DNA of 64,000 bases from an uncultured Pseudobdellovibrionaceae bacterium (GTDB lineage Bacteria; Bdellovibrionota; Bdellovibrionia; Bdellovibrionales; JAGQZY01). Numbering within the stretch: the first letter of the stretch is position 1; the number at the start of each line of letters is the position of its first letter. The notes beneath the pieces are model-generated. The model ran no database searches and had not been told where the DNA came from. It was given only the letters and a program-made list of their open reading frames with translations. Shown one piece after another: positions 15,042 through 25,374 of the stretch. Location: positions 430,019 through 494,018 of the forward strand of contig CAYNTO010000001.1 of assembly GCA_964400355.1 (NCBI GenBank), given 5' to 3'. Made by a program: the position numbers and the translations under genes.

Positions 15042-15596
15042 ATGCGTAGAGCATTACGGCAAACAGTGCCGCTTTTATTGGTAGTCCCTTTTCTGATTTC
15101 TTGCGGTAAGGTCGCGGAAAATTGGGCGGGCATTCGCGAAGGGATCATTGATCTTTCCGATATTTTTACGGTGGTTTCTAAAACTACCGCTACGGCCGAT
15201 GGCTTTGATGAGTCGGAGCTTGTCATTCGAGTGCACGATAAAAACGGAACACCTAAAGAAAACAGAACGGTGTCTTTTTCAGCTGCGGTTGAGGCTGGTG
15301 TCAATCACATTTCATGTACCCCTTCGGATGCGCAAGGCCTGATCGTTTGTAAGGTCCGCGCCCATCGCGACGGAGTTAAAAATTTAAAAATGGCCGGGCG
15401 CGAACAGACAGTGCAATTGGAATTCACCCGCTCCTTTGACCAAGCTGCGCTGCTAGTGGATGAGGCGGGTGGCAGCCATATGACCACTGCAGCCGGTGGA
15501 GATCTGGTCACTGCAACTGCCGGTAAAAAATGGAGTCCGCCTTTAGTCACCCAGTCCGAAGCCACGTTGAGGGCGGACGTAAGTGTTGTATTTTAG
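15042..15596 (+). CDS. lipoprotein with bacterial Ig-like (Big_1/invasin-like) domain
   Basis: Lipobox PFLISCG. VVSKTTATADGFDESELVIRVHDKNGTPKENRTVSFS resembles invasin/intimin Ig-like repeats. Confidence 0.6.
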   Translation: MRRALRQTVPLLLVVPFLISCGKVAENWAGIREGIIDLSDIFTVVSKTTATADGFDESELVIRVHDKNGTPKENRTVSFSAAVEAGVNHISCTPSDAQGLIVCKVRAHRDGVKNLKMAGREQTVQLEFTRSFDQAALLVDEAGGSHMTTAAGGDLVTATAGKKWSPPLVTQSEATLRADVSVVF

Positions 15597-15712
15597 ACCA
15601 AACCTCGAAGTTTCTGTATTGGAGAAAATAAACTCTTAATATTTTCTCGTTTTGGGGCGCTCCAAAGGAGAATTCTCTCAATAATATTCGTGAAGCTCCG
15701 ATAAATATTAAA

Positions 15713-18700
15713 ATGCTGAAATTTTTGAGGAATCTCCCATTCATCGCCGCGAGCTTGCTCTTTGTGGTCGCATCTCAGCGGGTTCTCGCTCAGGTGCCGG
15801 AGACCTTCGTTTATCAAGGTCAAATTCTTAAAAACGGCACCACTCCCCTCGAAGCCGATCCGGTTCTGTTCCGCGTTCAAATTCTGTCTCAGACCAATGA
15901 TTGCATTCTGTTCGAGGAACAGCACTCGATCAATATGCTGGGCTCCTCGGGCGTTTTCAGTTTGAACGTCGGCGCTGGCATGCGTTCGGGCACGGACTAC
16001 GAGGATACCTCGAGTCTTACGAATGTATTTAGAAACGGCCAGTTGTTCACGGTCACTCATTGCACATCGGGCACAGCGTACAATGCGTTAGCAAATCATA
16101 CACGTAAGATGCGGATCAGCTACAACGATGGCAGCGGTTACGTAACTATCGCACAAGATTTTCACATGCAAGCCACACCTTTTGCATGGTACGCCAACAG
16201 TCTTCAGGGATTAACGCCGACAAATTTTGTACAGACCAATGCGGGACAAAATGTAACGCAGGCCAATCTCGAAACTCTCCTGGGCGGCACGAACTACACG
16301 AATCTTTTAGCTCTCGCTAGTGGTTCGAGTCCGTCATATGTGCAAGTGGGTACCAACGGTGCCAGTCTCCCCAGTTTTTCTACCGATCCTGTTTCTCCAA
16401 CGGAAGGCATGATTTGGTTCAACCAAACTACCAATAAAATCACCTTTCATGATGGAACTGGAATTCAAGAAATGAACACGAGCACTATCGATACCACCAA
16501 GCTTCCTCTTGCTGGCGGTACACTTACGGGCCCACTGGAACTGGGCGGAGCGCTCGATGCGGCGTCATTTGATCTTTTGAATGTGGGGCATATCACTATT
16601 GCCAATCAACACACGTTGCGTTTGGGTCGTTATGACAATCCCCAACAGACAGCGCTCTTACTCACTTTGGGCGTGGGGCATGCGGGTACAACTTGGTACA
16701 ATACGGATACCAACAAGCTTATGTATTGGACAGGAACAGCGTCACGCGAAGTGATTGATAACCTCACTCCGGGCGGTGATCATGGTGTGCTTACTGGTTT
16801 GGGCGACGACGATCATACACAATATGCCGCTCTTGCCGGTCGTGCTTCGGGTCAAAACCTGCGCGGTGGCACTGTGCCGAGTGGGAATCTAACGTTGGAA
16901 TCGACCACCGATGCGACAAAAGGTTTTGTTATTCTGCAGCCCAATGGTGGCAATGTAGGTATTGGAACGACCAATCCACTCTCTCTGTTGCATGTGAGTG
17001 GAACTGTTGGCTCCAGCGGTAACGATTCTGGATTCGAACTCCGTGATCGAAACAATATAAACTCTACCACACTTATGTATATGAATGCAGGCGCCTTTCA
17101 TTTCTACGAAGGCGGGGTGCATGGGGTAACCCTGGATGCATCCAACTCTCGACTAGGAATCGGTTTGAACAACTTTGTTAGCCATCTGAATCATGCCATT
17201 ATCTTGGGAGCTGGGTCGGACAACATCATCACCGCAGAACCGAACTGGACGGATCCTGGAAGAGATATTTCTTTAATAGCCGGTAGCCCTAATTCTGGTC
17301 ATAACGATCTTGATGGCGGAAAGTTGATCTTAAGCTCTGGCGGATCCACAGGCGTGGGAGAGTCCCAGATAGAATTTAAAACAGCCACGGCCGGCGTTTC
17401 CGGCTCGGCGCCAAATGCTCCTACCCTCAAGATGGTTGTAACCAGTGATGGCAGGGTGGGGATTGGTTCTGCGACTCCGCAATCGCTTCTCGATGTGGCC
17501 GGTATCATCCGCGCGGAGCAGATCTGCGATGAGACCGGATCTAACTGCAAAGATATATCCACAGGCTGGAGTACCGGTAACGTATCGACATCGCGTGCGA
17601 TCAACACCAATACAGGATCAGCGCTAACGGGCGGCGGTGATTTGTCCGCAGATCGCAATCTGGCGGTGAATGTGGACAACACAGGTATTGAGATTGATTC
17701 CAATGCATTGAGATTGAAAGATTTGGGAGTAAGCACAGGGAAGCTCGCCAACACTTCCGTAACGGAAGCGAAGCTTGCGAACAATGCGGTAACCAGCGCG
17801 AAGATCGTTGACGGCACTATTGTAAGTGCAGATGTGGACAACGTAAGTATCGGCAAGATCTCCAATGCTCCGGCTGAGTACTTTACCTACATGCCTGCAG
17901 GCAGTGAATGTACAGATGGATATGTGCTCAAGTGGACTTCCAGTGATCGTTGGGAATGTTCAACGGACCTGGTAGGTTCCACGGATCACGGTGCACTTAC
18001 GGGCCTCGGCGATGACGATCACACACAATATGCACTTCTCGCAGGTCGCGGAGCAGGACAAAACTTGCGCGGTGGCACTGCCGCCAGTGCGAATCTCACT
18101 CTCGAATCCACATCGGATGTCACAAAAGGCTACGTGCTTTTACAACCTAGTGGTGGGAGCGTCGGTATTGGTACTACAGCTCCGCATGCTTCCGCTGTTA
18201 TGCAAATGGCTTCTACGACCAAAGGTTTTTTGCCGCCAAGAATGACGAGAGCGCAACGCAACGCCATCGGCACTCCGACTCAGGGACTAATGGTCTTCAA
18301 TACTGACGATAGCACCTTGGATTACTATAGTGGTTCAGCTTGGTTGAGTCTAAATGGATCCCCCAAATACATGAAGCTTGGAATGTCGGGCGTTCAAACG
18401 GTTGATTTACATTCAGTCGTAGCGTTTGATTCAATAAGGTCCAATGGTGGCATGACGACATCCGCAAACGGAATCCAACTCAAGGCCGGCGTTACCTACA
18501 GACTGGAAGCGGCGGTAAATTCCTTTTCCTCCGATTCAAGCAATTTTCTTGGCTATCAGTTGCACGACGGGACTTCTTATTTTGGACAGGCAGCTTATAC
18601 TTCTGAACCAGAAAATGCCAATTATGGATTTAAAGCTCATCTGTTGGAGTTCTACACTCCGATCGCGGATGTCACAGTGACAGTAAGAATCATTGACGAC

Positions 18701-20458
18701 TCTATCGGGACGGGCCAGATTCACAGCGCGTGGAATACTTATTTTGTTGCTCAAGAAGTGGTGCCGTCTGGCCCCGGTGGTGGTGGTGGCAATGACAACA
18801 TGGGTAACCATGCCGCTAGTCAAAATCTCGCGTTGTCAGGATTCTGGCTTTCAAACGATGGCAATGCCGAAGGAATTAGCATAAGTAATTCTGGCAATGT
18901 GGGTATCGGATCCGATTCTCCAAACGCTCTCCTCGATGTTGCCGGTATTGTTCGCGCGCAACAGATTTGCGATGAAGCCGGTGCCAACTGTAAAGACATC
19001 TCCACAGGCTGGGGTGGTGGTGGAGACATGGATGGTGTGACCACGCATGCGACCACGTCTGGTCTATTAGGTGGCGCCACCAGTGGCACTGCCGACTTGA
19101 GCGTAGACACCGACAACTCCACGATTGAAATCAGCGGCTCCAATAAAGTGCGAATTAAAGATTTAGGTGTCACCTCCGCAAAAATCGCGGACAACGCCAT
19201 CACCTCTGCAAAAATAAATGATGGCGCGATCATGAACGCGGATATCAACGCTTCGGCGGCCATAGCCTGGAGCAAGATCGATAAAACCGGCGCTGCTGCG
19301 GGCGACGTAGGAGCTGTACCAAGTTCCAGAACTATAGCGACATCAGGAACATCGGGTTTGAGCGGTGGGGGAGACCTCACGGCGAATCGTTCACTTTCGG
19401 TGAACGTCGATGACACCACTGTAGAGCTCAACGCAAATGCACTAAGAGTGAAAGACAGCGGCATCACCAGTGCAAAGATCGCAAATGGCACTATCGTGAA
19501 TGCCGACATCGGCGGCGTGAATATTAGCAAGATCAACAGTGCCGCAACCGAGTACTTTACCTATATGCCAAACGGTGCCGAGTGTACCGATGGCTATGTG
19601 CTGAAGTGGACATCGAGCAATCGCTGGGAGTGTGCGACCGACATCGGTGTGACCGATCACGGCACCCTCGGGGGTCTTGGTGACGACGACCACACACAGT
19701 ACGCGCTGCTCGCTGGCCGCACTACAGGCCAAAATCTTCGCGGTGGCACGGCCGCCAATGCAAATCTCACATTAGAATCCACTTCGGACTCCACTAAAGG
19801 ATTTGTTCTCTTGCAGCCCAATGGTGGATATGTGGGCATTGGTGTTGCGACGCCCACATCGACGCTCGATGTGGCAGGTACGATCAATGCGGCCGGAAAT
19901 TTAACTACCAATTCTCTGCTCGCCATCGACAACGTGGGCGCATTGCCCAACGGAATGCTGTTTTCGTTTCGTTCCCACGGCGTGGAGGCCGGTTTCATCA
20001 TGACCTATACCGCCGATGAGTTGAACGGTGATATGCAGTTCTCAACACAGACTGCCGGCACCACGACTGAGAAGATGCGCATTCTCGCCAATGGCAATGT
20101 GGGTATCGGAACAGGGGTTCCTTTGACAAAATTGGATGTGGACGGCGCGATCAAGTCGGAAGCGGTATCCAATGCCGGGACTACGATCGACTTTCTAACG
20201 GGCAACATTCAGTACACCAGTTCTTCATGCACAGGATTTACGTTGAACAATTTGAAGAGTGGAGCAGTTTACACGCTGATCGTTCAAGGGACGGCGGGCG
20301 GCACGTGCTCGTTCACACCTTTTTCGGGAACTGGCTCTGGATCACTTACTCTCAAAACGGGTTCGGTAGGACTCATACAAACTGCAAGCACCCATATGGT
20401 GTTCTCCTTCATGGTGGCGGGTAGTTACGTTTACGTGACGTCGGTGGACGGGTACTAG
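15713..20458 (+). CDS. giant secreted modular fibre/adhesin (phage-tail-fibre-like, MAT-fibre-like)
   Basis: 1581 aa with signal peptide MLKFLRNLPFIAASLLFVVASQRVLAQ. Three DHG.L.GLGDDDHTQY...NLTLEST.D.TKG.V.LQP.GG.VGIG modules. Two Cys-neck motifs ICDE.G.NCKDISTGW. SAKI.DG repeat tracts. KGFLPPRMT..QR.AI..P..GLMVFNTDD knob motif. Confidence 0.85.
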   Translation: MLKFLRNLPFIAASLLFVVASQRVLAQVPETFVYQGQILKNGTTPLEADPVLFRVQILSQTNDCILFEEQHSINMLGSSGVFSLNVGAGMRSGTDYEDTSSLTNVFRNGQLFTVTHCTSGTAYNALANHTRKMRISYNDGSGYVTIAQDFHMQATPFAWYANSLQGLTPTNFVQTNAGQNVTQANLETLLGGTNYTNLLALASGSSPSYVQVGTNGASLPSFSTDPVSPTEGMIWFNQTTNKITFHDGTGIQEMNTSTIDTTKLPLAGGTLTGPLELGGALDAASFDLLNVGHITIANQHTLRLGRYDNPQQTALLLTLGVGHAGTTWYNTDTNKLMYWTGTASREVIDNLTPGGDHGVLTGLGDDDHTQYAALAGRASGQNLRGGTVPSGNLTLESTTDATKGFVILQPNGGNVGIGTTNPLSLLHVSGTVGSSGNDSGFELRDRNNINSTTLMYMNAGAFHFYEGGVHGVTLDASNSRLGIGLNNFVSHLNHAIILGAGSDNIITAEPNWTDPGRDISLIAGSPNSGHNDLDGGKLILSSGGSTGVGESQIEFKTATAGVSGSAPNAPTLKMVVTSDGRVGIGSATPQSLLDVAGIIRAEQICDETGSNCKDISTGWSTGNVSTSRAINTNTGSALTGGGDLSADRNLAVNVDNTGIEIDSNALRLKDLGVSTGKLANTSVTEAKLANNAVTSAKIVDGTIVSADVDNVSIGKISNAPAEYFTYMPAGSECTDGYVLKWTSSDRWECSTDLVGSTDHGALTGLGDDDHTQYALLAGRGAGQNLRGGTAASANLTLESTSDVTKGYVLLQPSGGSVGIGTTAPHASAVMQMASTTKGFLPPRMTRAQRNAIGTPTQGLMVFNTDDSTLDYYSGSAWLSLNGSPKYMKLGMSGVQTVDLHSVVAFDSIRSNGGMTTSANGIQLKAGVTYRLEAAVNSFSSDSSNFLGYQLHDGTSYFGQAAYTSEPENANYGFKAHLLEFYTPIADVTVTVRIIDDSIGTGQIHSAWNTYFVAQEVVPSGPGGGGGNDNMGNHAASQNLALSGFWLSNDGNAEGISISNSGNVGIGSDSPNALLDVAGIVRAQQICDEAGANCKDISTGWGGGGDMDGVTTHATTSGLLGGATSGTADLSVDTDNSTIEISGSNKVRIKDLGVTSAKIADNAITSAKINDGAIMNADINASAAIAWSKIDKTGAAAGDVGAVPSSRTIATSGTSGLSGGGDLTANRSLSVNVDDTTVELNANALRVKDSGITSAKIANGTIVNADIGGVNISKINSAATEYFTYMPNGAECTDGYVLKWTSSNRWECATDIGVTDHGTLGGLGDDDHTQYALLAGRTTGQNLRGGTAANANLTLESTSDSTKGFVLLQPNGGYVGIGVATPTSTLDVAGTINAAGNLTTNSLLAIDNVGALPNGMLFSFRSHGVEAGFIMTYTADELNGDMQFSTQTAGTTTEKMRILANGNVGIGTGVPLTKLDVDGAIKSEAVSNAGTTIDFLTGNIQYTSSSCTGFTLNNLKSGAVYTLIVQGTAGGTCSFTPFSGTGSGSLTLKTGSVGLIQTASTHMVFSFMVAGSYVYVTSVDGY

Positions 20459-20469
20459 GAGATGCTCCG

Positions 20470-21228
20470 ATGAAACGAAGGGATTTCATAATTGGCGCCA
20501 CGGCAGGTTTGCTTTACCCGCAGCTTTCAAAAGCGCAAACGCTACCATTCGCAAATTGGAATAAGAACGTTGCTTCGACGGCCACTATCCAGCGGACAGA
20601 CGGGGACACAGATACCGGCTCTACAAATTACTCCTTCTCCTCAAAAAGTATTGGAAGCGCCTCTTCCGATCGCTTGATCGTCGTCGTGGCATCTCTGAAA
20701 AACGACAACAACAGCACAACGCCCAATCCAACGTGCACAATCGCAGGCGGCGCCGCCACGCGAGTCGTTTTGGCCCATCAGGTTCCCAGTTCCTGGTGCG
20801 CTACATTTGCTATATTTTCTCGTGCCGTGCCCACGGGTACCACGGCGACCATTGCGATTAACAACTCTTCGCTCAATCAGACGTGCTGTATCGATGTGTA
20901 TGCTCTCAAAAATCTACGCTCGCATGCTCCCATCGTTGTGCGATCCACGGTAAAGGAAACCGGCACCAATACCACCTCCGACAACTTGACCTTTGGGACC
21001 CGTTACGGAGGCGTTGGCGTTGTTGGTATCTCCGATCCTTCGGCCACCAATCGCACCTATACTTGGACAAATGCAACCAAGGATTCCGAAGAATTTTTAG
21101 TGAGTGCGCAGAACTCCAGCGCGGCTCGCTTTACTGTCGCCTCGGGAGCGGCCGCATTCACCACCGTCACTGTTTCGATCAATATTAGCACGGAGACTTA
21201 TGCTTTTGGCGGCGCTTTCTGGCGCTAA
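20470..21228 (+). CDS. Tat-signal hypothetical protein coupled to the fibre gene
   Basis: MKRRDFIIGATAGLLYPQLSKAQ. AGGAG overlaps the fibre stop codon, and the ATG lies 11 nt after that stop. Ser/Thr/Asn-rich body with no recognised family. Confidence 0.6.
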   Translation: MKRRDFIIGATAGLLYPQLSKAQTLPFANWNKNVASTATIQRTDGDTDTGSTNYSFSSKSIGSASSDRLIVVVASLKNDNNSTTPNPTCTIAGGAATRVVLAHQVPSSWCATFAIFSRAVPTGTTATIAINNSSLNQTCCIDVYALKNLRSHAPIVVRSTVKETGTNTTSDNLTFGTRYGGVGVVGISDPSATNRTYTWTNATKDSEEFLVSAQNSSAARFTVASGAAAFTTVTVSINISTETYAFGGAFWR

Positions 21229-21322: not shown

Positions 21323-23125
21323 TTAGTTTGCAGTAGCGCGGCGTTTGATCACCACCACCGACACGTCGTCGGGGAGCGGAATGTCGCCCCTATAGGTATT
21401 GAACTCTTCAAGAGTGGCGGCCGAAACTTCTTTTGCAGATTTTAAAAATGTGATTTTTTTCGCGAGTTTTTTTCCAAAGCGCAGCTCGCTCAGAACTTGG
21501 CCATCGGGGCGTTCGATGGAAAAGAGGCCGTCGGTGTATATCACCAAAGTGTCTTGCGGACTCAGCGTGAACGACTGTTCGCGAAGGGTGCTGGGGATAT
21601 TATCGCCAATGCGGGCACTCGCCATCATGTGAACGTTGTCGACTTCGTAGCCGCCGTAATCTTTGTAGCGCATGAGATAGGGAGGTTCGTGACCGGCGTT
21701 CACGAAAGTTACATCTCCGGTTTTTGAATGGACGCGGTAGAGCTGGCCCGTCATCAACACCTCTTGGCGAGAGCAGCTGTAAACCGCATGATCCCAAATT
21801 CGCATCATTTCCAGTAATGGAATGTTTTCGTTTTCAATTCGAGAAAAAATTGAACGGGCGGCGGCGGTGATAAGTGCAGCTGGTGTTCCGTGGCCGGTGG
21901 CATCTGCAACGGCTACGTAAATGTACTCACCCTGCTGAAAGTAATACCACCAGTCACCACCACACTCGCTCGACGTCATTACGGTTCCGAAGACTTCGAT
22001 GGAATTGAAAGCATGGGATGATTGTTCCGGCAAAAGTTTTTCCTGTACATATGCCGCGGTCTTTAATTCCGCTTCCATGCGCGCTTTTTCGCGGGTTTCC
22101 AGGAGCAAACGTTGAATTTCGCGGATCATGCGACCAAAAGCGCCGGCCAATATACCGATTTCATCTTGAGATTGAATTTTGGGCCGATCGTCGAAAGTGC
22201 CTTCGGCGATTTCTTCGGCCCAGGCGGTGATGATTTTTAATCCGCTCGTCAGGAGCCTTGCCAAGGTGAGTGCGATTATCGTGAGAGCGAAAAAAGAAAG
22301 GACTAAGAAAATCAGAGAACGCGTGAACAACACATTGAGCGCTCCTAATGCCTCCGCCTCCGGAGTGAGAGACACCAATCGCAGTTTGTACGCCTTCATC
22401 TCTGTTTGGCTCATCAGAAAACGATGATCGTTATCGGTCACCAACTTGGTTTGCTCCACGCCTTCGGAGGATCGCGTTTTCGCCACATTCAAGAAGGTTT
22501 GTGGCTGAAGACCGCGCATATCAGAAACCGCCAAGATCGACATGTCCGTGTTCGACGTGTCTGAGAGAAGAGCGATAGAGTTCATCATGTCGGGTGTAGG
22601 GAGTAAATCCTTCGTCAACACCGCCAGACGAATTTGATATGTCCCGCGCGGGCCTTGATCGTACTTGAGACTTAATAGGAAGGTGTCTTTATTGATAAGG
22701 CGCAGATCCGCTTCGCCTACTCCTTTTGCGAATGTTTCCGCCACTGGCGGTAGTAATGACGGAACCTTCTCCAAACGAAATACGCTCTGTTTTGCCGTTT
22801 GATTCCAAAGTTCGATGGCCATCAAGTTTTTCTCGTCTTTAAAAATCTGTTGTCCCGCGGAATTCGGACGCCCCAAGTTGGGATCATAGGTGGCCACAAT
22901 GCTGCGTGCGGCGAGTAAAGACATTGCCAATTTACTCTCCACTTCGCTCTTAACCGATTGCAGGCGGGAATTTTGCGCGTCGAAGACGTAAGAGATTTTG
23001 TCGTTTTCGAAAACATTCTTGGCGATCAGAACGTACGATAAAATAAATACAAGACCGGTAGCGATCAACGCAAGAGTGAGTTTCCATTTGATGGAGGCGC
23101 TCTTCAGCAGATTTAATAATGCCAT
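21323..23125 (-). CDS. membrane sensor PP2C (SpoIIE/RsbU/SiaA-like) phosphatase with HAMP domain
   Basis: TM1, a periplasmic region of about 270 aa, TM2, HAMP (AEEIAEGTFDDRPKIQSQDEIGILAGAFGRMIREIQ), then PP2C motifs GGDWWYYF, ADATGHGTPAAL and YTDGLF. Start is ATG 23125 (MALLNLLKSASIKWKL), overlapping the upstream gene by 13 nt. Confidence 0.85.
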   Translation of the reverse strand: MALLNLLKSASIKWKLTLALIATGLVFILSYVLIAKNVFENDKISYVFDAQNSRLQSVKSEVESKLAMSLLAARSIVATYDPNLGRPNSAGQQIFKDEKNLMAIELWNQTAKQSVFRLEKVPSLLPPVAETFAKGVGEADLRLINKDTFLLSLKYDQGPRGTYQIRLAVLTKDLLPTPDMMNSIALLSDTSNTDMSILAVSDMRGLQPQTFLNVAKTRSSEGVEQTKLVTDNDHRFLMSQTEMKAYKLRLVSLTPEAEALGALNVLFTRSLIFLVLSFFALTIIALTLARLLTSGLKIITAWAEEIAEGTFDDRPKIQSQDEIGILAGAFGRMIREIQRLLLETREKARMEAELKTAAYVQEKLLPEQSSHAFNSIEVFGTVMTSSECGGDWWYYFQQGEYIYVAVADATGHGTPAALITAAARSIFSRIENENIPLLEMMRIWDHAVYSCSRQEVLMTGQLYRVHSKTGDVTFVNAGHEPPYLMRYKDYGGYEVDNVHMMASARIGDNIPSTLREQSFTLSPQDTLVIYTDGLFSIERPDGQVLSELRFGKKLAKKITFLKSAKEVSAATLEEFNTYRGDIPLPDDVSVVVIKRRATAN

Positions 23126-25374
23126 CGAATCACCATGAATCCTTCGCCCAGTCCCTCGCGATATGGCAGGCCTAACGGCGACGCCGTCTTTACACTTCCT
23201 GCTTCGAATAAGTGCAATCGATATCCACCACCAACAGCCCACTTGCGGTCGAAATAATAGTTCAGATTCCCAGTAAGCTCGTATTTTTGGCTGGAGTCAA
23301 ATCCATATCCTACAAGCGCTTCACCCGATAGATCCCAATAACGGTAGAACGGAAACAAAACGCCCAATCCCACTTTTGCCAAATTATATCCCGGTGAGAA
23401 CAATTGCGTGCCGCTGTTTTTGTAGTATTCGTAGCCGGCGATGAACGAAAGCTCAGAGCGAATGAGCGAATGCAGTGGATTGCTAGGGCCATACCACCGG
23501 TAGCGGTAGCGAGCTTCCACATGCAGCGGGGAATTGGACCCACTGGCCGCATCTTCGGAGCCGGCCACTTTGGCTTTCGCGAGGCCTTCAAGGCCATGGT
23601 GCTCTTTCCATTGAAGCCAGCGCAAACCTAATGTGTAGATACTCGGCGACGTCGTGCCCTGGCTGGCTTGATCCGCGGAAAACATGGAGAACTGGCCGGT
23701 CTCAACCGAAAAGCGGGAACGCAAATAATTGCGATTGTATTCTGCAGGTTTGCTGGAAAATGTCTGGCTCAACACGGGCACACTGGAAACATTGCGGGCG
23801 TGCACCGGGGCTGTCGTCTCGGGCGTGTAAACTTCGATTATAGCCCTGCTGACTTTCTTGGCTTTGCGGCCAAACTGATCCTGCGCAGTAAAAGCCACCT
23901 GGTAAATGCCGGCTTTATTCCAATTGAGCGAGTACGGAGAATTTTGAATCGTTTCTTCTTTGAGAACTGTTTCGGCGGAGTCAGTAATGCGGACGTCGTA
24001 CTTCCACAAGCGGTGAGAATTGTCCCAGTGTAGAGATACTGGAGTGTTTTCAGGAATTCGAATTTTAGATTTCGCAAGCTGTGGAGCCTCGGGAAAAGGC
24101 GGTCGCACCACTTTCACGGTGCGTGTGTCGGACACATGCGACAGCTGTAAGCGTTCATTCACTCCGCGAACGCGCAAGTACAATGTTTGTGGTTGTGTGG
24201 CGTTGAGCGAAATCTCCGCCGTCGATTGCCAGCTCACCTTTGTCGATGCGCGGGTGAACTCGGGAGATGTGGAAAGTTCCAGTAAATAATTCTTCCAAAT
24301 TCCGCCGACCGTTCCGTGAATTTGTACATCCTGGCCGAGCAGATACACCGTTTTTGCGGCGACAGTGATTTGTGGTGGGAGATCATCAAGAGGCAGCGAC
24401 TCTACGGTGAACTGATGGGGGTTGGACCACGTCTTTCCATCTACAGACAAGCGATAAAAATTCCCTCCGCGCACTGTCTGCGCAAAGAAGGCCTGCTTTT
24501 TATTTTGCGACTCCGAAAACGTCGATACAATCGCTGTGAATTCGCGGTCCGTCGACAACTCGCCGTAAACAGTGGAGGCCAAGAATTTATTCTCCCACTT
24601 TACAGGACCGGCGAAGGCCACCAGCTGCTTCGGCATGGCTCGCTGTACGAGTGCGCCATTGCTCTTTTCAAAAAAATCGTAGAGTTCATCGGTACGCCGG
24701 TAAATCGGTGCGCCGGCAATTGCCACCACGGCTTCTTGATCGACGACGGGCATATTCATCACCGGACGAGTGAGCGTATTGAGGGCCAACGATTTGTTTT
24801 TCTCAAGTGTCACGCTTCTGTTATTTGAGCGCACCGACGCATTTCCTTTGACGAGACGGATTTCTGGAGACTTGTTTTTGGAGAACACCACTTCTACTTG
24901 AGCATCGCTACCGTCGAACTCGAGTATCTCACCCTGAGCGGCGATGCGCATTTTACCCTGGATGTTAAGTTTGAAATTACCAAAAACCATGTTCGGAATT
25001 TGCACGCTGTTTTCACTGATAAACTTAATCAGCGAGTTCTGCTCGAGCGCAATCTCTTTGCCATTCGCCACTTTAATTTTCAATTTAGAACGCTTACCCG
25101 TAAACACGCTGTCGCCAGAATGGATGTCGGAACTCAAATCGGCTTTATTCCAAGTGAAGGAGGAGCTGAGACGACGGCGCACATCGTTTTCAGAATGAAC
25201 GATTTCGCCGATAATGCGACCCGAGTTTTGTGATGGTGAATTGTGGAAAAAGACCGAGAAGAGATCATCAGAAAACAAAAGTGCGCTACACACCAAAATT
25301 CCCAAAAGGCTTGTGATCAGAATCGCGCGATCTCTGCGATCGCTGTCTGCATTTTTAGACTGTGATGGTTTCAA
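23113..25374 (-). CDS. FecR-domain protein with Ig/FN3-like middle and C-terminal beta-barrel-like domain
   Basis: TTG start. N-terminal hydrophobic anchor AILITSLLGILVCSALLF. FecR-like GDSVFTGKRSKLKIKVANGKEIALEQNSLIKF. The last 220 aa or so are aromatic/Gly-rich alternating strands ending GFMVIRWHY. Confidence 0.6.
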   Translation of the reverse strand: MKPSQSKNADSDRRDRAILITSLLGILVCSALLFSDDLFSVFFHNSPSQNSGRIIGEIVHSENDVRRRLSSSFTWNKADLSSDIHSGDSVFTGKRSKLKIKVANGKEIALEQNSLIKFISENSVQIPNMVFGNFKLNIQGKMRIAAQGEILEFDGSDAQVEVVFSKNKSPEIRLVKGNASVRSNNRSVTLEKNKSLALNTLTRPVMNMPVVDQEAVVAIAGAPIYRRTDELYDFFEKSNGALVQRAMPKQLVAFAGPVKWENKFLASTVYGELSTDREFTAIVSTFSESQNKKQAFFAQTVRGGNFYRLSVDGKTWSNPHQFTVESLPLDDLPPQITVAAKTVYLLGQDVQIHGTVGGIWKNYLLELSTSPEFTRASTKVSWQSTAEISLNATQPQTLYLRVRGVNERLQLSHVSDTRTVKVVRPPFPEAPQLAKSKIRIPENTPVSLHWDNSHRLWKYDVRITDSAETVLKEETIQNSPYSLNWNKAGIYQVAFTAQDQFGRKAKKVSRAIIEVYTPETTAPVHARNVSSVPVLSQTFSSKPAEYNRNYLRSRFSVETGQFSMFSADQASQGTTSPSIYTLGLRWLQWKEHHGLEGLAKAKVAGSEDAASGSNSPLHVEARYRYRWYGPSNPLHSLIRSELSFIAGYEYYKNSGTQLFSPGYNLAKVGLGVLFPFYRYWDLSGEALVGYGFDSSQKYELTGNLNYYFDRKWAVGGGYRLHLFEAGSVKTASPLGLPYREGLGEGFMVIRWHY

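Follow-up and report, generated by a model that had tools for sequence, protein, structure and literature searches.

A long fibre gene in a 64,000-nucleotide stretch of DNA from an uncultured Pseudobdellovibrionaceae bacterium (contig CAYNTO010000001.1, positions 430,019 to 494,018; the whole stretch is called the window, and coordinates are given in its own numbering) encodes a head domain inserted inside its shaft in addition to a different domain at its distal tip. The gene occupies 15713..20458 of the + strand, on which all features of the fibre lie, and belongs to the mosaic adhesive trimer (MAT) family. In 2024 the fibres of this family were presented as the system, long sought, by which Bdellovibrio recognises its prey, with specificity residing in a swappable C-terminal tip (PMC10769870). 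A second place where such fibres diversify is seen in the window gene and its relatives, namely a socket inside a shaft repeat that takes heads of predicted TNF/C1q-like fold, after which the fibre continues to another tip. The MAT family, TNF-like folds as MAT tips and serial globular domains in phage fibres were already known; no account of a MAT fibre with a head placed internally, at a defined socket of the shaft, was found in the founding paper or the searchable literature, and the window gene is regarded as a new architectural variant of a known family.

The fibre is a member of the MAT family

The gene is a single uninterrupted open reading frame (ORF) of 1581 amino acids without stop or frameshift at the junction discussed below. 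The profile Bdello_MAT_N (NCBIfam NF053851, 'mosaic adhesive trimer family chimeric fiber protein') matched residues 18-176 with E=5.2e-39 and 133.6 bits (cut-off 60), and only this one copy was found in the protein. The matched region is the N-terminal beta-rich domain (15764..16240), whose presumed role as the anchor on the predator surface follows from the work on the family (PMC10769870), and a Sec-type signal peptide, MLKFLRNLPFIAASLLFVVASQRVLAQ, was read from the sequence at 15713..15793. MAT proteins, defined in Bdellovibrio bacteriovorus by Caulton et al. 2024, combine a signal peptide, a conserved N-terminal domain of ~130 amino acids, a long trimeric shaft and a swappable C-terminal tip, the signal peptide being followed by the conserved domain in every one of them (PMC10769870). 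The edges of their beta-helices carry capping loops of the form V-G-G/N-pi-x-x-P-x-x-x-L (PMC10769870), and a regular expression for this motif matched the window fibre five times, at residues 415, 582, 1063, 1374 and 1463. These data demonstrate that the fibre gene is a member of the Bdellovibrio MAT family.

MAT fibres end in one of two kinds of tip, an S74 chaperone or an adhesive domain of non-S74 type, for example a TNF-like fold or a C-type lectin (PMC10769870). A Pfam scan of the whole protein gave nothing significant and no Peptidase_S74 (PF13884), so that the window gene counts, from its ORF and the NCBIfam and Pfam scans, as a MAT gene without the S74 peptidase domain; the S74 chaperone with its SDxxxK motif is present in the relatives P0008, P0009, P0013, P0017 and P0034. 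The chromosomal genes nearby include alaS, a hybrid histidine kinase gene and a gene for a SiaA-like phosphatase. Together with the Sec signal and the MAT anchor domain, these neighbours indicate that the gene encodes a bacterial surface fibre and is not a phage gene.

An internal domain is predicted to fold as a TNF/C1q-like jelly roll

The internal head covers residues ~884-1016 (18362..18760) and was delimited from its predicted fold and its homologues. An alignment of 34 copies of the domain was used to build an AlphaFold2 model of the region, which has a mean predicted local distance difference test score (pLDDT) of 86.6, with values of ~95 across the domain and below 50 only at a run of four glycines that follows it. 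When the head model was compared with the Protein Data Bank (PDB) by Foldseek, it matched structures of the TNF/C1q family at E=8e-7 to 1e-5 with target template-modelling (TM) scores of 0.6-0.77. The best E value belonged to EDA-A1 (E=8e-7, target TM 0.76), and further matches were 4-1BBL, C1QL1-3, the collagen VIII NC1 domain (1o91, TM 0.77), BAFF and the knob/petal of the phi812 spike (9eul). In BFVD, which holds predicted viral structures, the head matched many models of phage tail-fibre, C1q and BclA-like proteins. The internal domain is thus, by prediction at high confidence, a ten-strand TNF/C1q-like jelly roll. An earlier note on this DNA, made from its sequence alone, had proposed a globular domain at this place and named the C1q/TNF-like jelly roll beforehand as the fold to be expected; the prediction agrees with it on both points (pLDDT ~95, E down to 8e-7, TM ~0.75), and the domain is ~133 amino acids long rather than the ~150 that the note had estimated.

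The assignment to the TNF/C1q family is one of fold. Pfam C1q (PF00386) and TNF (PF00229) gave no match to the head even at E<=10, and Pfam scans of the separate head and tip segments returned nothing significant. A sequence search of the PDB with the profile of 34 heads was likewise without significant match, the best being an insecticidal protein (E=0.23) and the PRD1 P5 knob (E=0.7), and no sequence similarity was detectable to the tips of Bd2439 or Bd2734 or to any PDB chain. The absence of Pfam C1q/TNF and of significant PDB sequence matches places the head in a separate sequence family that belongs to TNF/C1q by fold only. Within the fibre itself, phmmer found a single match to the head and no further hidden copies, and a candidate third head was rejected on this ground.

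The domain is a terminal head in other proteins

An exhaustive HMMER search with residues 837-1020, comprising the head and the adaptor motif in front of it, against 1.84 billion representative proteins yielded 9370 matches at E<=1e-3, among which full-length matches to motif and domain had E=1e-38 to 1e-75; a word-index homology search with the head returned only three matches, all of them to the motif only. The earlier note had assumed that the motif followed by the domain normally terminates a polypeptide. This was not what we found: of 30 representative homologues that bear the domain, 11 have the head as their exact C-terminus (...ATE[LIM]-stop) and the other 19 have it internally, and motif and domain together are terminal in only two (P0035 and P0040) and internal in about 12.

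P0064 and P0145 are fibre-like proteins with a terminal head, which in P0145 directly follows a Laminin_G_3 lectin domain, and P0040 has the order collagen, adaptor, terminal head. P0083, a protein of 222 amino acids with a C-terminal head, is encoded in a siphophage tail module after the tape-measure gene, the Dit gene and a gene for 354 amino acids, which is the receptor-binding-protein position of such a module. Its terminal position in other fibres and in the phage protein shows that elsewhere this domain is a true head or tip. The core motifs LKAGxTYR, YLGY and FYTPxxD are strongly conserved between internal and terminal copies, and collagen-like Gly-X-Y repeats precede the head in some homologues (P0040, P0005).

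Serial heads were seen in several other proteins. P0021 has an internal head of the window type and a Pfam C1q domain at its end, and P0005, a phage-like protein of 947 amino acids, carries three tandem TNF-like heads as beads on a string with short collagen-like GMKGDKGD linkers between them. In Bacteriovoracaceae UBA6200, Halobacteriovorax marinus and one unclassified proteobacterial metagenome-assembled genome (MAG), the same adaptor leads into a classical C1q-like domain, after which come a Gly-rich linker and further shaft. These C1q-like loci, together with P0021 and P0005, indicate that serial heads on one fibre are a recurrent grammar. An IMG/VR scan with an alignment of the phage-like heads gave no confirmed locus. 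As a separate observation, the protein P0007 (locus L001) of Bdellovibrio sp. LF-bin-57 has the internal head and its surroundings as well as a second adaptor motif, and its segments 719-847 and 1282-1404, the latter C-terminal, weakly resemble C1q domains; this chain may hold three or four heads.

The head is inserted between the two halves of a shaft repeat

The head is preceded by an adaptor motif, KGFLPPRMT...GLMVFNTDDSTLDYYSGSAW (residues 837-877, KGFLPPRMTRAQRNAIGTPTQGLMVFNTDDSTLDYYSGSAW; 18221..18343), which ends in ...YYSGSAW and is predicted by AlphaFold2 to form a short helix and a beta-hairpin (H14-18, E28-31, E36-40; pLDDT ~90). By HMMER the motif is a repeat in thousands of proteins, with up to 13 matched stretches per protein. 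The Pfam entry PF26696 'PTL_trimer' is precomputed on homologues whose motif is 59-64% identical, and literature searches found no publication on PF26696 or PTL_trimer. Across genomes the adaptor motif was seen at 517 confirmed loci, mostly in Bacteroidota, and in loci L007-L080 it precedes varied terminal domains, among them phage-collar-like, Fib_succ_major lectin-like and Gly-rich ones.

The head is followed by VP(S/A)GP and a Gly-rich linker (residues 1017-1027; 18761..18793), which is conserved among homologues, predicted to be disordered from the pLDDT below 50 at GGGG, and may act as a hinge. The linker PSGPGGGGGN to which the earlier note had pointed is present in it, at residues 1018-1027 (18764-18793) rather than at 18762..18795. 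The chain then enters DNMGNHAASQNLALSGFWLSNDGNAEGISISNSGNVGIGSDSPNALLDV (residues 1028-1077; 18794..18943), a 'DNLGNH' shaft module with a capping loop, whose consensus is DN(L/M)GNHxAxQN...WLSxDG...GNVGIG. Comparison with shaft repeats shows that this module is the usual continuation of the shaft after the adaptor: in P0028, P0048, P0100, P0118, P0264 and P0075 it stands a few residues after the adaptor hairpin (...GFYYYNGSAW...), often several times per protein. It had been read in the earlier note as the N-terminal shaft start of a second fibre; it is an internal shaft module, and none of the proteins in the sets scanned begins with DN(L/M)GNH.

When residues 830-1080 of the window protein were aligned with seven adaptor-to-DNLGNH units, both flanks aligned and the only large gap, of ~145 residues, corresponded to the head and the linker. 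This indicates that the adaptor and the DNLGNH module are the halves of one shaft repeat, with the head spliced between them. The shaft repeats of P0028, P0048, P0100 and P0118 therefore have the same two parts that flank the window head, and differ in that a connector of a few residues takes the place of the 145-residue head and hinge. The clean boundaries of the insertion, W877 to D1028, offer an evident place at which predators could be engineered towards other targets.

The cassette is conserved across genera

The full order of adaptor, head, VP(S/A)GP-Gly linker and DN(L/M)GNH module, referred to as the cassette, is common to nine long representative homologues, the majority of them from predatory bacteria, and those carriers that could be placed belong to Bdellovibrio and its relatives. 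Among them, WP_142695531.1 of Bdellovibrio sp. NC01 matches MAT_N strongly. Genomes were scanned with search patterns derived from an eight-sequence alignment (A2), and this located the cassette in one Bacteriovoracaceae MAG (UBA6200), in Bdellovibrio sp. HCB117 and in two MAGs of Bdellovibrionaceae; a genome scan with a single fibre protein as query gave no confirmed locus. In addition, a Bacteriovorax genome encodes the internal head but continues differently after it, and in another Bacteriovoracaceae MAG the same site holds a divergent insert. The possibility that two genes had been joined by an error of assembly or annotation was rejected, since independent genomes share the same in-frame junction.

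Across genera the cassette is conserved at 53-63% identity, and the sequence past it varies among relatives, which continue to S74 chaperones, C1q-like tips or other tips. That the cassette is kept while the downstream parts differ indicates a conserved, mobile piece of the mosaic, much older than the window gene. P0008 and P0275, which fall into one cluster at 90% identity and have the same internal head, differ in the tip alone, which is an S74 chaperone in P0008 and C1q-like in P0275.

A duplicated shaft unit flanks the head, and the two halves lie in one reading frame

A shaft unit that precedes the head recurs after it. The first copy (residues 575-835; 17435..18217) consists of a capping loop, Cys box A, a neck, the SAKI tract, Cys box B, DDDHTQY module 2 and a capping loop, and the second (residues 1056-1390; 18878..19882) has an extra neck segment of 76 residues and DDDHTQY module 3. 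By self-comparison the two share 50-61% amino acid identity over the matched stretches (BLASTP) and 71-76% nucleotide identity, and both Cys boxes occur twice in the fibre. These values indicate that the duplication is real but old, and neither recent nor an assembly artefact. The earlier note was right that the neck, Cys-box and DDDHTQY unit is repeated after the head and before a different tip, and that motif, globular domain, Gly linker, ATG and second shaft unit all stand in one ORF.

To that note the gene had looked like two complete fibres fused head-to-tail. A fusion of two once-separate complete fibre genes, with the first fibre ending at the head and the second starting at MGNH, would account for the duplicated unit of 260-335 amino acids after the head, for the in-frame ATG at 18800 and for the fact that the head ends other polypeptides exactly at ...ATE[LIM]. 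However, the second half has neither a signal peptide nor the MAT N-terminal anchor domain and is thus not a complete fibre; the post-linker module is an internal shaft element with which no scanned protein begins; and the junction is a clean insertion inside one shaft repeat. Moreover, the conservation of the cassette across genera means that it long predates the window gene, Met1030 is not conserved, and the nucleotide identity of the duplicated units is only 71-76%. A fusion is largely refuted by these findings and we regard it as improbable.

The in-frame ATG after the linker (Met1030; 18800..18802) was also proposed as a start codon. Initiation at this site would produce the second half as a separate protein of 552 amino acids, and the G-rich Gly codons just ahead of it, GGTGGTGGTGG, bear a loose resemblance to a Shine-Dalgarno sequence. 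Comparison of homologues and a scan for start signals argue against this: among nine junction-bearing homologues the position is Leu in eight and Met in one, a scan for promoters and terminators gave sites at chance level only, with no promoter-like site near 18800, no Shine-Dalgarno signal stood out, and the product would be without signal peptide and anchor. Internal initiation at 18800 is hence very improbable.

Split versions of the gene with a boundary at the Gly linker, which the earlier note had suggested looking for, were absent from the nine junctions, the neighbourhoods of five terminal heads and the one split relative examined. The reading frame is kept across each of the nine homologous junctions, and no stop interrupts the four whose locus DNA was read (L001-L004). 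In the five homologues that end at the head, the downstream genes are unrelated and encode a short-chain dehydrogenase/reductase, a response regulator, an acyl-CoA dehydrogenase, a hypothetical protein and a phage protein. The sole split relative, P0274 and P0008 in a Bdellovibrionales MAG, is broken at ...DDHTQYVLLAG / MLLQPNGG, inside the DDHTQY module and not at the linker. An intact version of 2080 amino acids exists, and the break may be an assembly or frameshift artefact; P0008, P0275 and P0274 come from this MAG and an ENA contig.

Another possibility is proteolysis of the exported fibre in or close to its Gly-rich linker, which would release or separate the distal half, for example on prey or in a deposited vesicle. 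The linker is predicted to be disordered, its conserved VP(S/A)GP-Gly sequence could mark a recognition site, and MAT proteins move to a vesicle left in the prey, those of the S74 type being autoproteolytic (PMC10769870). On the other hand, the Pfam and NCBIfam scans found no protease domain or S74 motif in the fibre, conserved Pro/Gly linkers are commonly passive hinges, and no sequence feature demands cleavage. There is thus only a slight chance that the fibre is processed in this way.

The distal tip differs from the internal head

The C-terminal tip (residues 1477-1581; 20141..20455) is predicted by AlphaFold2 (pLDDT 86.6) to be a small beta-sandwich with one Cys pair (C1506, C1532). It has no close solved homologue, Foldseek giving no match to the PDB at E<=1e-3, and among the 17 homologues found, 15 have the tip no more than one residue from the C-terminus. 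In the model, the capping loop ahead of the tip superposes on the loops of Bd2439, Bd3182 and Bd2133 at 0.7-1.8 A with 43-54% identity. Since the tip differs from the internal head, the fibre carries two different head/tip modules. The proposal of the earlier note that one polypeptide may display two heads in series is therefore upheld in the form of an internal head and a distinct C-terminal tip, with the second copy of the shaft unit between them.

A fibre with two putative prey-binding modules

We consider it probable, with some reserve, that the gene encodes one trimeric MAT fibre, anchored at its N-terminus, in which a TNF-like head placed mid-shaft on a Gly hinge and a different tip at the distal end are two putative prey-binding modules. 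The fibre would be exported by the Sec pathway and its shaft built of repeated modules; a cassette of ~145 residues, comprising the TNF/C1q-like head and the VPSGP-Gly5 hinge, would have been inserted between the KGFLPPRMT/hairpin adaptor and the DNLGNH module; and past this cassette the chain would run through the anciently duplicated neck/Cys-box/DDDHTQY unit to the small beta-sandwich tip. The two distinct putative ligand-binding modules, one about two thirds along the fibre and one at its end, would probably widen or strengthen the recognition of epitopes on the prey surface, and neither cleavage nor internal initiation would be required. Family membership, predicted fold, insertion site, conservation of the cassette and the terminal position of the domain elsewhere are observations; from these we infer the trimeric state, ligand binding by the head, the function of the hinge and the biological role. 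A binding role of the head is suggested because the domain is a C-terminal head at fibre tips and in the receptor-binding-protein position of a phage, and because TNF-like MAT tips bind glycans, as Bd2439 does with N-acetylglucosamine and also with Proteus lipopolysaccharide (PMC10769870).

Several points weigh against this interpretation. The head fold is a monomer prediction, and the subfamily of the head has no detectable sequence similarity to the Bd2439 and Bd2734 tips or to any PDB chain. In TNF/C1q domains in general the N- and C-termini emerge on the same face. For the window head this would make a coaxial arrangement of head and then shaft geometrically awkward; at the same time it would be favourable for a domain that has been inserted, and the fibre would then have either three lateral heads or petals around a continuous shaft or a kink or branch at a trimeric head. 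Finally, the same sequences could be explained by a head that is purely a structural node for folding or registration.

This structural role is the main rival, in which the internal TNF-like domain would serve mainly as a clamp for trimerisation or registration, or as a folding nucleus, for a very long fibre that has no S74 chaperone. C1q/TNF-type heads nucleate the trimerisation of collagenous stalks in C1q and in the NC1 domains of collagen VIII/X, to one of which, 1o91, the head is matched; the motif in front of the head is named PTL_trimer in Pfam on the strength of homologues; and LKAGxTYR, YLGY and FYTPxxD are kept in internal and terminal copies alike. However, the cassette is also found in internal-head fibres that do end in S74 (P0008, P0009, P0013, P0017 and P0034), the same domain occupies the phage receptor-binding-protein position and fibre tips, and many related shaft repeats manage without any insert between adaptor and DNLGNH. 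We therefore think a mainly structural domain unlikely, and favour the fibre with two putative binding modules.

A more far-reaching extension, which we regard as rather speculative and a little less likely still, is that MAT fibres are two-stage or branched adhesins. In this view O-antigen, capsule or another far epitope would first be caught by the distal tip; the fibre would then fold at the hinge and bring the internal head onto a deeper epitope, which would in effect reel in the prey. Different C1q/TNF-like heads could be loaded by predatory bacteria into the adaptor/DNLGNH junction, as into a general plug-in socket, and prey range retuned by this.

If the internal head binds prey, one fibre would be bi-specific, counts of tips would understate the recognition repertoire, and knock-out and tip-swap experiments would have to allow for the internal head. 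The significance is limited in that multi-domain fibres are familiar from phages and the case of the window rests on computation.

Comparison with known fibres

Bd2439 and Bd2734 share with the window fibre the signal peptide, the conserved N-terminal domain, the capping loops and a mosaic distal end, and the TNF-like jelly roll that is their adhesive module (PMC10769870) is predicted in the window fibre too. In contrast to these proteins, in which the TNF-like domain is the C-terminal tip, the window head is internal and followed by ~565 residues and a second, unrelated tip, and its sequence shows no detectable resemblance to those of the solved tips. In the text and supplement of PMC10769870 heads of an internal or mid-shaft kind were not found to be mentioned, and no paper describing internal TNF-like heads in MAT fibres was found in the searchable literature.

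C1q, C1QL and the NC1 domains of collagen VIII/X resemble the window fibre in that a trimeric fibrous stalk bears a C1q/TNF jelly-roll head, and Bacillus BclA is another protein with a collagen stalk and a C1q head. In C1q, C1QL and collagen VIII/X, however, the head always ends the chain, whereas the window chain leaves the head and resumes the shaft, and the window head gives no Pfam C1q/TNF match. Phage fibres and spikes such as the PRD1 P5 knob and the knob/petal of the phi812 central spike are likewise trimeric, with beta-sandwich knobs and shuffling modules, and knobs or serial globular domains are also known from R-type pyocin fibres and T4 gp34. Unlike these, the window gene is chromosomal in a predatory bacterium and encodes a Sec signal and the MAT anchor, not a part of a virion; the weak sequence match of the head to PRD1 P5 (E=0.7) is not significant.

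Remaining shaft segments and neighbouring genes

DDDHTQY occurs three times in the fibre, at residues 365, 767 and 1324. Sequence matches place DDDHTQY module 1 and a capping loop at residues 356-428 (16778..16996). The segment between the capping loops at 415 and 582 (residues 429-595; 16997..17497) is probably a triple beta-helix, by analogy with the tip region of Bd3182, and motif matches suggest that the segment between the last two capping loops (residues 1388-1476; 19874..20140) is probably a beta-helix as well. The proximal shaft has two more hairpin motifs of the form G..W[FY]N......Y[YW].G without the PRMT helix, at residues 232-248 and 325-341 (16406-16456 and 16685-16735), and a stretch resembling these hairpins gives weak DUF2793 matches in homologues.

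The neighbours of the fibre gene are not conserved beside related fibres. Directly upstream, an ORF of 184 amino acids (15042-15596, +) has a lipoprotein-like N-terminus (...LISCGK) and no family match. Downstream, an ORF of 252 amino acids (20470-21228, +) begins 12 nucleotides past the fibre stop and may be co-transcribed with the fibre gene; it has a twin-arginine-like N-terminus, MKRRDFIIGATAG, is without NCBIfam match and was not found beside related fibre genes. The gene for the SiaA-like protein, with a HAMP domain and a PP2C/SpoIIE-type phosphatase domain (21323-23242, -), lies on the other strand, two genes beyond the fibre gene in the downstream direction. Long antisense ORFs of 155-238 amino acids within or overlapping the fibre gene (17299-17865, 18820-19536 and 15593-16060, all -) are probably spurious and a consequence of the bias and repetitiveness of its coding sequence.

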